Source of the DNA: Methanocaldococcus sp. 16A | GTDB lineage: Archaea > AGJL01 > Methanococci > Methanococcales > Methanocaldococcaceae | Length of the DNA stretch: 64,000 nucleotides | Assembly (NCBI GenBank): GCA_049860595.1 | Contig: CP187551.1 | Strand: one strand, 5' to 3' | In this document: piece after piece, positions 38,498 to 54,247 of the stretch | How positions within the stretch are numbered: the first letter of the stretch is position 1 | Layout: each line of letters starts with the position of its first letter | Made by a program: the position numbers and the translations under genes | Notes under the pieces: model-generated | The model's database searches: none | Told to the model about the DNA's origin: nothing | Seen by the model: only the letters and a program-made list of their open reading frames with translations

Positions 38498-39028
38498 ATG
38501 AGAATAGCAATAACTGGAACTCCAGGAGTTGGGAAGACTACAGTTTCAAAAGTTTTAGGGGACAAATTGGGACTAAAAGTTATTGATATTACAGAAGTTG
38601 TAAAAAAATATAAACTATATACTGAAAAAGATGAGGATATGGACTCTTATGTTATTGATTTTGAGAAATTGGAAAAATTTATTGATGAGATTGAGGAAAA
38701 AGAAAAAACCATAATATTAGATGGTCATGTATCCCATCTTTTAAATTCTGATTATACAATAGTGCTTAGATGCAATCCTGAAATTATTAAAGAAAGATTA
38801 GAAAAGAGAGGTTATAAGCCAAAAAAGGTTTTAGAGAATGTTCAAGCAGAGATATTGGATGTCTGTTTATGTGAAAGTAAAGGTAGAGTTTATGAGATAG
38901 ATACAACAAATAGAAGTGTAGAGAGTATAGTTAATGAGATTATTGAAGCAATAAAAAATAAAAAAGAAAGAAAGGGGATTGTAAATTGGATGGAGGAATA
39001 TTTTGATTATTTAACTACAACCTTTTAA
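38498..39028 (+). CDS. AK6/Fap7-type adenylate kinase
   Basis: ITGTPGVGKTT, ILDGH, RLEKRGY...KV.ENV.AEI. Confidence 0.92.
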   Translation: MRIAITGTPGVGKTTVSKVLGDKLGLKVIDITEVVKKYKLYTEKDEDMDSYVIDFEKLEKFIDEIEEKEKTIILDGHVSHLLNSDYTIVLRCNPEIIKERLEKRGYKPKKVLENVQAEILDVCLCESKGRVYEIDTTNRSVESIVNEIIEAIKNKKERKGIVNWMEEYFDYLTTTF

Positions 39029-39080
39029 GAAAAGGTTGATCAAAATGGATGCATTGCCTCGCTTCGCTCAGCAATGCCTC
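39018..39080. repeat. Two-hairpin intergenic module (second copy at 53395-53457)
   Basis: CAACCTTTT-AAG-AAAAGGTTG, ATCAAAATGGATGCATTGC-N13-GCAATGCCTC. Confidence 0.75.
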
Positions 39081-52724: not shown

Positions 52725-53387
52725 ATGATATGTTTGCCAGTAGTTGAAAATAATGTGGAAGATGCAATAAAAACAGCTGAAAAGTATTTGGAAATAGCAG
52801 ATATTGTTGAATTTAGAATAGATATGCTTAAAGAAGTTAGTGAAGATGATATGGAAAAATTTACTAAATATCCTTGTATAATAACAGTTAGAGCAGATTG
52901 GGAAGGTGGCTATTGGAAAAAATCTAATGAAGAAAGATTAAATCTAATAAAAAAGGCAATTGAATGTAATGCTAAATTTGTAGATATTGAGTTAAAAGAA
53001 GAGAAGAATAAAGAACTTGTAAAATTTAGAGATGAGATTGGTTCAAAAACAAAAATTATAATTTCATATCATGATTTTGAAAAAACTCCTTCAAAAGATA
53101 CATTAATTGATATAGTTGAAAAATCTCTTAGCATTGGAGATATAGCAAAATTTGCAACCATGGCAAATAGTAAAGAAGATATTATCAATATTTTGGATGT
53201 GATAAACAAATATCCGGGAAAAATTATTGGCATTGGAATGGGAGAAAAAGGAAAACTAACAAGAATCTTAGGGGTTTATTTTGGTTCAATATTAACCTTT
53301 GCCTCTTATAAAGGGAAGAGTTCAGCTCCTGGACAAGTTGATATAGACACTCTAAAAGAGATTTGGAGACTTATGGATTTAAAGTAA
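52725..53387 (+). CDS. aroD: Type I 3-dehydroquinate dehydratase
   Basis: EFRID, T.R...EGG, ISYHDF, IAKFA, MGE.G..TR, APGQ. Confidence 0.95.
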
Positions 53388-53394
53388 TCCTAAA

Positions 53395-53677
53395 TGAAAC
53401 TTTTAGAAAAAGTTTCATCAAAACGGATGCATTGCATCCTAAAGAAAGCAATGCCTCATAATGGACATTAATTGCCCCTTTTAGGGGTAACTTAATGGAC
53501 GAGGAGTATCCCGAACCATAGGGCTTCGCCCTATTGGTATACCCATACATGGGGAGTATAGCAATAGAGGGGCTACGCCCCTCTATGCGAGTAGAGCAAT
53601 AGAGGGTTTCCCTCTATGCTTAGAAAAAGGTTCATCAAAAATTTTGGGGTATACCAATAGGGGCGTAGCCCCTATGG
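53395..53677. repeat. REP/BIME-like mosaic of GC-rich hairpins
   Basis: Four GTA(T/G)A-SCAATAG..CTATGS units (53516-53542 minus; 53556-53588, 53591-53619, 53649-53677 plus) and additional hairpins. Confidence 0.85.
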
Positions 53678-54247
53678 TCCTAAATTTTTAAGCATAGTTT
53701 CAGCCAATTTTTTATGCTCTTTATTGCCAACTTTTTTAATTATTGAAAAATATTTTTTCATCTCTTCCTTCATATTTTTTTTCTCATTTTCATCAATTTT
53801 TATACTTTTATTTATTAATCTTGAGTAAATAACTGCCATCTCAACCAACAAGCCATCTGCTCTATTATATGGCTTTGGAATATTGTTTAAATATATTCTT
53901 TTTATCTCTTCCCCTTCTATAATCATCAATCTGTTTTTTCCAAATTTATCTTCTCTATCAACAAACTCTCTTTTGATAACTTTGTAAAATATAACATAAT
54001 AAGAATTTTTTAAATAGGGGATGTTGTTGTAATAAAGATATTCGTCATTATCATCTAAAACTGCCTTCGCTATCTCTATTGGTGGAACTACATTAACTGA
54101 AAAATAATCTTCAGTTAAAAGATTTTCATAAGTATGAGAGCCAGAAAAAAGATGCATAATAACTTTTTTATCTTTAAAATAAACACCAATTGGAGCTTTG
54201 TTATCATTATCATTTTTTCTTGTTGCTACAACCACTTCATTTATCAT
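53672..54247 (-). CDS. DUF447 family protein
   Basis: EVVVAT...N.APIGV, GSHTYENL, YNRADG.LVE.AV..SR. Confidence 0.82.
   Translation of the reverse strand: MINEVVVATRKNDNDNKAPIGVYFKDKKVIMHLFSGSHTYENLLTEDYFSVNVVPPIEIAKAVLDDNDEYLYYNNIPYLKNSYYVIFYKVIKREFVDREDKFGKNRLMIIEGEEIKRIYLNNIPKPYNRADGLLVEMAVIYSRLINKSIKIDENEKKNMKEEMKKYFSIIKKVGNKEHKKLAETMLKNLGP

Follow-up and report, generated by a model that had tools for sequence, protein, structure and literature searches.

In the archaeon Methanocaldococcus sp. 16A, the convergent genes for type I 3-dehydroquinase (aroD) and for a DUF447 protein are separated by an intergenic block of about 282 bp (53396-53677) made up of at least eight hairpin modules. 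What this block is, and how it came to lie between two genes, is the question addressed here. The window, a 64,000-nucleotide stretch of DNA, belongs to a 1.62-Mb genome (G000) that is 99.98% complete and whose chromosome is denoted C1. A sequence-only reading of the window had described an array of four hairpins at 53460..53677, likened it to the REP and BIME repeats of bacteria, and supposed that an HUH-family nuclease serving it is encoded elsewhere.

Table 1. Features of the aroD-DUF447 locus in window coordinates, with the evidence for each
Feature	Position	Strand	Evidence
aroD (type I 3-dehydroquinase), upstream flank	52725..53387	+	ORF; Pfam DHquinase_I E 4.8e-61
Target duplication TCCTAAAT, 8 bp, left copy	53388..53395		7/8 nt aligned at both borders; rest by reading
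H5 module, AT-rich hairpin GAAACTTTT-AGA-AAAAGTTTC + ATCAAAA tail	53396..53423	+	inverted repeat; recurs at other loci
H3 module, reversed, apical stem partly decayed	53424..53459	-	inverted repeat; by-eye comparison with H3 copies elsewhere
H2 module, reversed, long hairpin, GCCCC-TTTT-GGGGT apex	53461..53500	-	fold
Unit A, H1 long form (core 53516-53542)	53506..53544	-	covariance model 43.5 bits
Unit B, H1, G-C closing pair, 8-bp apical stem, TAC loop	53556..53588	+	pattern match
Unit C, H1, GTAG tag, TTT loop	53591..53619	+	covariance model 49.1 bits
H5 half, second copy, 21 nt (TTAGAAAAAGGTTCATCAAAA)	53620..53640	+	direct repeat of 53403-53423, 95% identity
Unit D, H1, C-G closing pair, GTA loop	53649..53677	+	covariance model 47.4 bits
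DUF447 stop codon TAG (CTA inside unit D 3' arm)	53672..53674	-	ORF
Target duplication TCCTAAAT, right copy	53678..53685		reading + alignment
DUF447, downstream flank, convergent with aroD	53672..54247	-	Pfam DUF447_N E 7.4e-25, DUF447_C E 9.8e-14

Reading of the sequence, together with a search using the pattern from the earlier description, recovers its four units where they had been placed, A on the minus strand and B to D on the plus strand, and the layout GTA(T/G)-A-S-CAATAG-stem-3-nt loop-stem-CTATG-S' is seen in all of them. The proposed extent of the array requires revision: units A-D do lie inside it, but the repeat block begins at 53396, and 53461-53500 is occupied by a different module, H2, copies of which are found at C1:23427, 219776, 627683 and 1191638. 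The aroD stop codon is at 53385-53387, and where the left TCCTAAAT copy stands in this genome, relatives have a single short spacer. On the far side, the 3' base of unit D touches the right copy. The ends of the block are not mutual inverted repeats, one being the H5 hairpin and the other the 3' base of an H1 hairpin. Within the block, the two 21-nt copies of half of H5 (53403-53423 and 53620-53640) flank an inner block, 53424-53619, with the module order H3-H2-A-B-C. In unit A the GTAT tag is paired with a downstream ATAC, with a TTCGGG loop between them; further copies of this long form of H1 are located at C1:1064472 and 1191638.

The H1 module, which accounts for all four units, is defined by a GGRGTATA-S-CAATAG / CTATG-S' base, an extra A, a G+C apical stem of 3-8 bp and a 3-4-nt loop, giving a length of about 27-35 nt. 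A covariance model, R1, was built from 19 H1 copies. Units A, C and D match the model, and unit B, which falls under the cut-off of E 0.01 because of its longer stem, matches the pattern. Conservation was assessed on 63 model matches, 61 of them distinct, in an alignment fitted to the model, which favours the result: standard pairs occupy 99.1% of the pair cells, and the covariation score is equalled in 0 of 500 shuffles. The closing pair covaries, as the earlier description had it, being C-G in 42 and G-C in 15 of the 63 matches, and the next variable pair, the first of the apical stem, is G-C in 35 and A-U in 24. Both A's of CAATAG are kept in 63/63 matches, and the tag letters G, T, A and T in 60, 60, 63 and 61, respectively. 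The tetranucleotide tag is conserved as claimed, but its two forms are far from equivalent, GTAT being dominant (61/63 matches) and GTAG rare (1/63). Judged from this alignment, the H1 fold and its invariant base, comprising the GTAT tag and the extra A, clearly appear to be under selection.

The loops are biased as well. On the tag strand, GNA-type triloops are present in 21 of 44 copies and the complementary TNC type in 0/44, in a count whose script overlooked unit B (TAC); TNC loops number about three among the 63 model matches. DNA mini-hairpins of the GCGAAGC type are unusually stable and nuclease-resistant. By analogy with these, the GNA bias may mean that the tag strand works in the form of folded single-stranded DNA, and shared ancestry of the copies could produce it as well. 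Stem mismatches, with two GT and one AC in 169 pairs, are too few for any G.U versus A.C asymmetry to be read. Overall, action of H1 as single-stranded DNA is plausible.

A scan of the 1.62-Mb genome with the strict pattern, a check put forward in the sequence-only reading, gave 20 exact matches at about 14 loci and established that the motif is not confined to this locus. With the tag omitted from the pattern, there are 28 matches, of which 24 are G+C-stem hairpins by reading, and 23 of these 24 carry GTAT or GTAG. With the covariance model, 24 H1 copies were found here, and 14 of 16 congeneric genomes have matches (range 0-55), the richest being G010 (55), G015 (50), G016 (46) and G006 (39). 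Modules H1-H5, of which H1-H4 are G+C-rich hairpins and H5 is A+T-rich, recur at about 23 loci in this genome, 2.4 kb in all, either singly or as mosaics of mixed order and orientation. Among 23 sister-family genomes, a single one has a model match, and that match is weak (E 1e-4); outside the genus, the strict pattern has no match in 24 genomes; a reversed-pattern control gave no match in all 41 genomes searched. A public scan covering one genome per prokaryote species returned at least 114 stretches, most of them single chance matches that do not fold, and among the matches listed, G+C-stem hairpins occur solely in records of Methanocaldococcus, Methanocaldococcaceae or Methanococci. Plasmid and phage collections contain no pattern match, and none of 11 pattern matches in viral contigs is a proper hairpin. 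We conclude that each of the four hairpins is an H1 copy and that H1 is one module of a dispersed family of mosaic repeats, which is nearly restricted to Methanocaldococcus-type archaea.

A small second member of the family is present in the window at 39022-39080 (G000 C1:1383022-1383080), where an H5-like hairpin is followed by a reversed H3; a long flanking duplication is absent there.

The block is strongly structured. A 261-nt region of it folds at -57.6 kcal/mol, versus -28.8 +/- 3.5 kcal/mol for shuffled sequences (n=200; z -8.2; 0/200 as good), and the minimum-energy fold pairs unit A with unit D over 16 nt that are 100% complementary. These values speak for a single structured non-coding RNA gene in which A-D pairing closes a multi-hairpin fold. 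We nevertheless regard such a gene as extremely unlikely. The A-D complementarity is trivial, since A is D copied in inverted orientation. Relatives lack the locus, and its parts are repeats dispersed over the genome, grounds on which the reading of units A-D as a local RNA gene was rejected. The Rfam search that had been suggested as a route to an RNA identity yielded, at the gathering score, two tRNAs only in the window. With E values up to 10 allowed, the sole match in 53300-53800 is HCV_5BSL1 (E 1.3), and this search places the block in no Rfam family, the Hgc RNAs of AT-rich hyperthermophiles included. The case bears on annotation, as an island of G+C-rich hairpins in the A+T-rich genome of a hyperthermophile is easily mistaken for a small-RNA gene.

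Comparison of the aroD-DUF447 gap among strains, also advised in the sequence-only reading, bears on the history of the locus. The block is absent in 8/8 relatives that have the two genes adjacent. The spacer measures 6-11 nt in G011, G015, G001, G010, G008 and G006, and 22-35 nt, A+T-rich, in G012 and G016; the flanks of the locus in G011 are 95-96% identical to those in the window genome. The insertion point corresponds to the 11-nt zone in which the convergent aroD and DUF447 genes overlap. The DUF447 product ends in MLKNLGP here versus MLRNLNLL in relatives, where the end of its gene overlaps that of aroD, and the last codons and the stop codon here derive from unit D, which the earlier description had already recognised as the source of the stop. 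The insertion has replaced the final DUF447 residues. On either side of the block stands a copy of the 8-bp TCCTAAAT duplication, three positions of which differ from the spacer of most relatives, so that we infer the ancestral state. A composite with the same module order is found at C1:1191613-1191861 (77% identity), and similar ones occur in G016 and G005. Taken together, these observations make it very probable that the block is a mobile mosaic repeat that was inserted here; the aroD-DUF447 island is, on this reading, mobile repeat DNA that rewrote the end of a protein gene.

The arrival of the block was probably a two-step, nested event, as one internal repeat suggests. In the first step, an H5-D unit would have arrived with the 8-bp target duplication; in the second, a block of about 196 nt (H3-H2-A-B-C) would have entered the tail of H5 with a 21-nt duplication. 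We favour the nested order because the inner 21-nt repeat equals the target duplication of a polymorphic three-hairpin insertion at C1:1064465, a site that is empty in G011, and because the H5-D unit (53620-53678) is 98% identical to C1:1064444-1064502. Alternatively, the full composite may have landed beside a pre-existing H5-D unit.

A separate array occupies the same junction in G007 (L008; G007:C199, last 260 bases). It consists of a reversed H1, an unclassified hairpin, H3 and H5, lies 19 nt upstream of the aroD stop with a duplication of about 6-7 nt, and has replaced the aroD C-terminus. Because this array differs from that in the window and arose independently, the aroD-DUF447 junction has been struck at least twice.

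The position of the hairpins relative to genes raises the possibility that the block is kept for a host function at the RNA level, in which it would protect or terminate the 3' ends of the aroD and DUF447 transcripts, as bacterial REPs do. Among 44 H1 copies, array copies being non-independent, 35 lie between tandem genes, eight between convergent genes and none between divergent genes, so that the hairpins are found downstream of genes; one lies inside an ORF, leaving 43/44 outside long ORFs. T-runs are present in H5. PMC3733652 likewise places REPs mostly 3' of coding regions, where they are plausibly transcribed. Against such a role, the block is missing in all eight relatives with the gene pair and is therefore not needed there, and a stabilising function leaves the invariant single-stranded tag unexplained. 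Between tandem genes, 21 copies are in the sense and 14 in the antisense orientation; because there is no clear bias, a strictly strand-specific RNA role of the hairpins is unlikely. We consider retention of the block for its effect on RNA improbable, and hairpins in 3' regions may affect transcripts. A by-eye view of match positions revealed no pattern with respect to the replication strand.

Hairpin arrays are also found directly behind tRNA-Val and tRNA-Arg (C1:627551-627860 and 1191528-1191861). In the array at C1:627551-627860, the tRNA 3' end is partly duplicated on the far side.

Insertion polymorphism and target duplications are also observed at other loci of the family. At 8 of 23 loci, the flanks contain long imperfect direct repeats above the 99th percentile of 1000 random controls, and empty alleles in G001 prove that these are true duplications at C1:290838 (about 48 nt) and C1:877824 (about 28 nt). 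The chromosomes of G000 and its closest relative, G011, which share 94.5% identity, were then compared, and 48 indels with overlapping flanks were found, only those with an overlap of at least 6 nt being counted. Eleven of them, inserts composed of hairpin modules, overlap by 12-58 nt with a median of 39; in the same pair, the 18 MITEs that are A+T-rich and have terminal inverted repeats overlap by 6-34 nt with a median of 8 (Mann-Whitney p 4e-5). About 11 further hairpin-bearing indels, the window's included, are replacements or have no clear duplication; by reading, these make up about half of some 22. The two copies of the duplication are identical at 42/42 positions in one case and 85-95% identical in others. 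In 9 of 11 events, the duplicated segment runs across a start or stop codon or lies no more than 41 nt from a gene end, and the first copy keeps the end of one gene while the second keeps the signals of its neighbour. At nine or ten sites, the insert stops exactly at the H1 3' base, where the second target copy begins; the other end is variable. Over the whole family, duplications are 6-58 nt long, with 8 bp for the window block.

These data bear on a further alternative, that the block is a classical MITE moved in trans by a DDE-type transposase acting on terminal inverted repeats, with a short target duplication of fixed length. The 8-bp duplication of the window block and the 6-7 bp or so of the G007 insertion would suit such an element, and two active-looking families of A+T-rich MITEs reside in the same genomes. 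However, the block has no terminal inverted repeats, its module order is that of a mosaic and is not fixed, and the range of 6-58 nt is at odds with the median of 8 nt among true MITEs in the same pair of genomes. A classical MITE is therefore very unlikely. Compared with the classical MITEs of these genomes, the hairpin family makes target duplications that are much longer and vary more in length.

Several features of the comparison with G011 are recorded here for their own sake. A possible hot region is C1:10000-26000, where a single 15-kb stretch holds five of the eleven events with long duplications. The insert at G011 C1:36108-36443 is 336 nt long and has duplicated 53 nt of target; besides reversed H1 and H3 modules, it contains about 200 nt of further sequence that is G+C-rich and probably structured. 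A 213-nt G+C-rich segment at G011 C1:65926-66140, absent here (window position ~36078, G000 C1:1380078), does not resemble the H modules; it may represent some other element or a gene for a small RNA.

Not every difference between close relatives is a gain. An H3+H1 insertion at C1:11578 with a duplication of about 46 nt is common to G000, where H3 has since been deleted, G015 and G010, and is missing in G011, the closest relative, and in G001; as judged by flank overlap, it is also missing in G006 and G016. Because of this distribution, some of the differences between close relatives represent precise losses or allele replacements, and many pairwise "insertions" may have arisen by precise loss or by allele replacement through recombination. 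At a second site, different module sets stand between the same duplicated flanks in G010 and G011. For most polymorphic inserts, a donor of more than 95% identity was not found in the search; for the insert with a perfect 42-nt duplication, the best donor is 94% identical over 54 nt. Because near-identical donors were not found, copy-and-paste within a genome is at most a candidate route. In G006, at least four copies of a composite of about 250 bp are 94-98% identical to one another, from which it follows that whole mosaics can multiply.

We turn to the enzyme. According to PMC3733652, REPs carry GTAG or CGTC tags, RAYT genes are flanked by GTAG repeats, and single-stranded REP DNA is cut at the tag. 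The family resembles this system, as described in PMC3733652, in its short tagged imperfect palindromes with a required unpaired feature, its many dispersed extragenic copies and its head-to-head or mixed arrays. A true REP/REPIN system would demand a Y1 HUH enzyme that cuts and pastes single-stranded H1 and either escapes the Pfam model through divergence or was once active and has since been lost. In favour of such a system, H1 is a 27-35-nt imperfect palindrome whose 5' tag is invariant and separated from the stem by a single base, and it has an invariant extrahelical A; the copy number is high and the orientations are mixed; and the predominance of GNA over complementary loops suggests that one strand matters. 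Furthermore, CGTC-tagged REPs without a dedicated transposase are reported in PMC3733652.

The search for the enzyme itself was negative. Pfam Y1_Tnp (PF01797) has no match in this genome, the same search being positive in 6 of 14 control genomes, so that neither the HUH nuclease supposed to be encoded elsewhere nor a Y1 gene flanked by hairpin units was found here. Across the genus, Y1_Tnp is present in 3 of 17 genomes, as two intact copies and one with stop codons, and it has no match in the four hairpin-richest genomes G015, G006, G016 and G010 (39-55 hairpins). The two intact loci (L059, at G011 C1:829396-832749, and L060, in G001) have no H1-like hairpin in the 3.3 kb examined; their G+C islands and end hairpins are unrelated to H1, and at L059 the Y1 gene adjoins a 392-aa ORF, as in ordinary IS200/IS605 elements. 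The single-strand chemistry of IS200/IS605-type elements inserts DNA without target duplication, whereas the hairpin family makes target duplications on insertion. The tag, moreover, is GTAT, not GTAG, and the host is an archaeon. A true REP/REPIN system is thus decidedly improbable. What survives of the original comparison is the dispersed, tagged and bulged palindrome arranged in mosaics of mixed orientation; the REP/RAYT engine does not. The family works like REPs and BIMEs in its architecture, perhaps also as a folded single strand, and fails to match them in tag, enzyme and insertion footprint. REP-like tagged hairpins thus exist in an archaeal genus without the enzyme credited with driving bacterial REPs.

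Other enzymes fared no better. The reverse transcriptase family RVT_1 is absent in this genome, as is the Y1 HUH enzyme, and classical retroposition is for that reason unsupported. One ordinary copy of Cas1 is present; a spacer-integrase route through Cas1, prompted by duplications close to CRISPR-repeat length, was dropped because the lengths vary from 12 to 58 nt. No parent element of the block was found among the enzyme families searched (Y1_Tnp, RVT_1 and Cas1), and the recurrent neighbour genes of the hairpins are paralogue pairs only, for example P-loop ATPase-like genes, with no nuclease-like neighbour. Two such paralogues, P-loop ATPase-like by reading and 71% identical (G000 C1:165388-166437 and 662473-663510), have an H1 or H3+H1 unit just upstream of the start codon, and a similar pair exists in G011.

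The best explanation of the locus, which we hold with considerable confidence, is that the block belongs to a genus-restricted, non-autonomous, non-coding family of mobile hairpins and was inserted in this lineage only. Insertions that end precisely at the hairpin foot and loosely on the other side, that duplicate 6-58 nt of target and that go with neither a transposase nor a reverse transcriptase leave a footprint suggestive of capture at staggered breaks or template switching by host enzymes, or of an unrecognised factor that reads the invariant base. The choice of any single insertion chemistry is at best tentative. In outline, H1 would act as a folded single strand whose invariant base is read by a putative factor, and copies would be pasted into staggered breaks whose width varies (6-58 nt). 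Of these insertions, selection would keep those whose duplication spares the ends of both neighbours, and the long direct repeats would later permit precise loss. Selection for gene-sparing duplications probably shapes the lengths that are seen.

A more radical proposal, and in our estimation a rather unlikely one, is that the family spreads by an undescribed route without a transposase of its own: a single strand that ends in a hairpin, resists nucleases and has its 3' end exactly at the H1 foot would be captured at staggered breaks, with duplication of 6-58 nt. Were this true, the duplications would let the element settle in the tight gene junctions of a compact hyperthermophile genome and leave without a scar, and the family would represent a new class of prokaryotic mobile DNA, with a retroposition-like footprint made without reverse transcriptase. 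How transposase-less palindromic repeats move is made a testable question by these data, as the genus has a genetically tractable member, and the sharply defined invariant base of H1 is a possible bait for a binding protein.

The mobile hairpin family may be compared with several known systems. The BIMEs of enterobacteria are intergenic mosaics in which short motifs of several types follow one another in variable order and orientation. The H modules are likewise mixed in order and orientation between genes; unlike in BIMEs, whose motifs are unrelated to them, H mosaics insert whole with duplications and differ between close relatives. BIMEs are named in PMC2229807. The CGTC REPs and the palindromic elements of Rickettsia are, in the accessible parts of PMC3733652 and PMC2996958, tagged palindromes, apparently without a dedicated transposase, that enter genes or gene ends, as the H1 family does; they differ in tag and sequence, and those parts of the two papers do not mention long variable duplications. 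In a limited literature search, no report of these hairpins or of long duplications in the genus was found, and absence from print is not claimed. The attC sites of integrons, which are read as folded single strands, conserve both their fold, with its extrahelical bases, and their base, and vary in the apical stem. By analogy, H1 may share this logic of recognition and nothing more, the family being without cassettes, ORFs or the context of an integron integrase.

Closest in host are MJRE1-3, palindromic repetitive elements of Methanocaldococcus jannaschii (Suyama, Lathe and Bork, FEBS Lett 2005), which are cited in PMC2229807 and PMC2996958. Like the H family, they belong to this genus and are palindromic, mostly extragenic and at times inside coding regions. 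In 2005, Suyama, Lathe and Bork reportedly distinguished 141 such elements in three groups, about 100 bp each. By description, the only basis of the comparison, the H1-H5 family may presumably be MJRE1-3; alternatively, the MJREs would be the A+T-rich MITEs with terminal inverted repeats.

Two polymorphic families of such A+T-rich MITEs, about 87-110 bp long and with a median overlap of 8 nt, were seen between G000 and G011. The first has the terminal repeats AGGACTTTCGCAG...CTGCGAAAGTCCT; the second has TGTGCAAAA...TTTTGCACA and a central hairpin, GAATGCCTTCC...GGAAGGCATTC. Examples of these MITEs are found at G011:257442-257549, 1149227-1149315 and 1384676-1384776, and at G000 C1:294763-294863.
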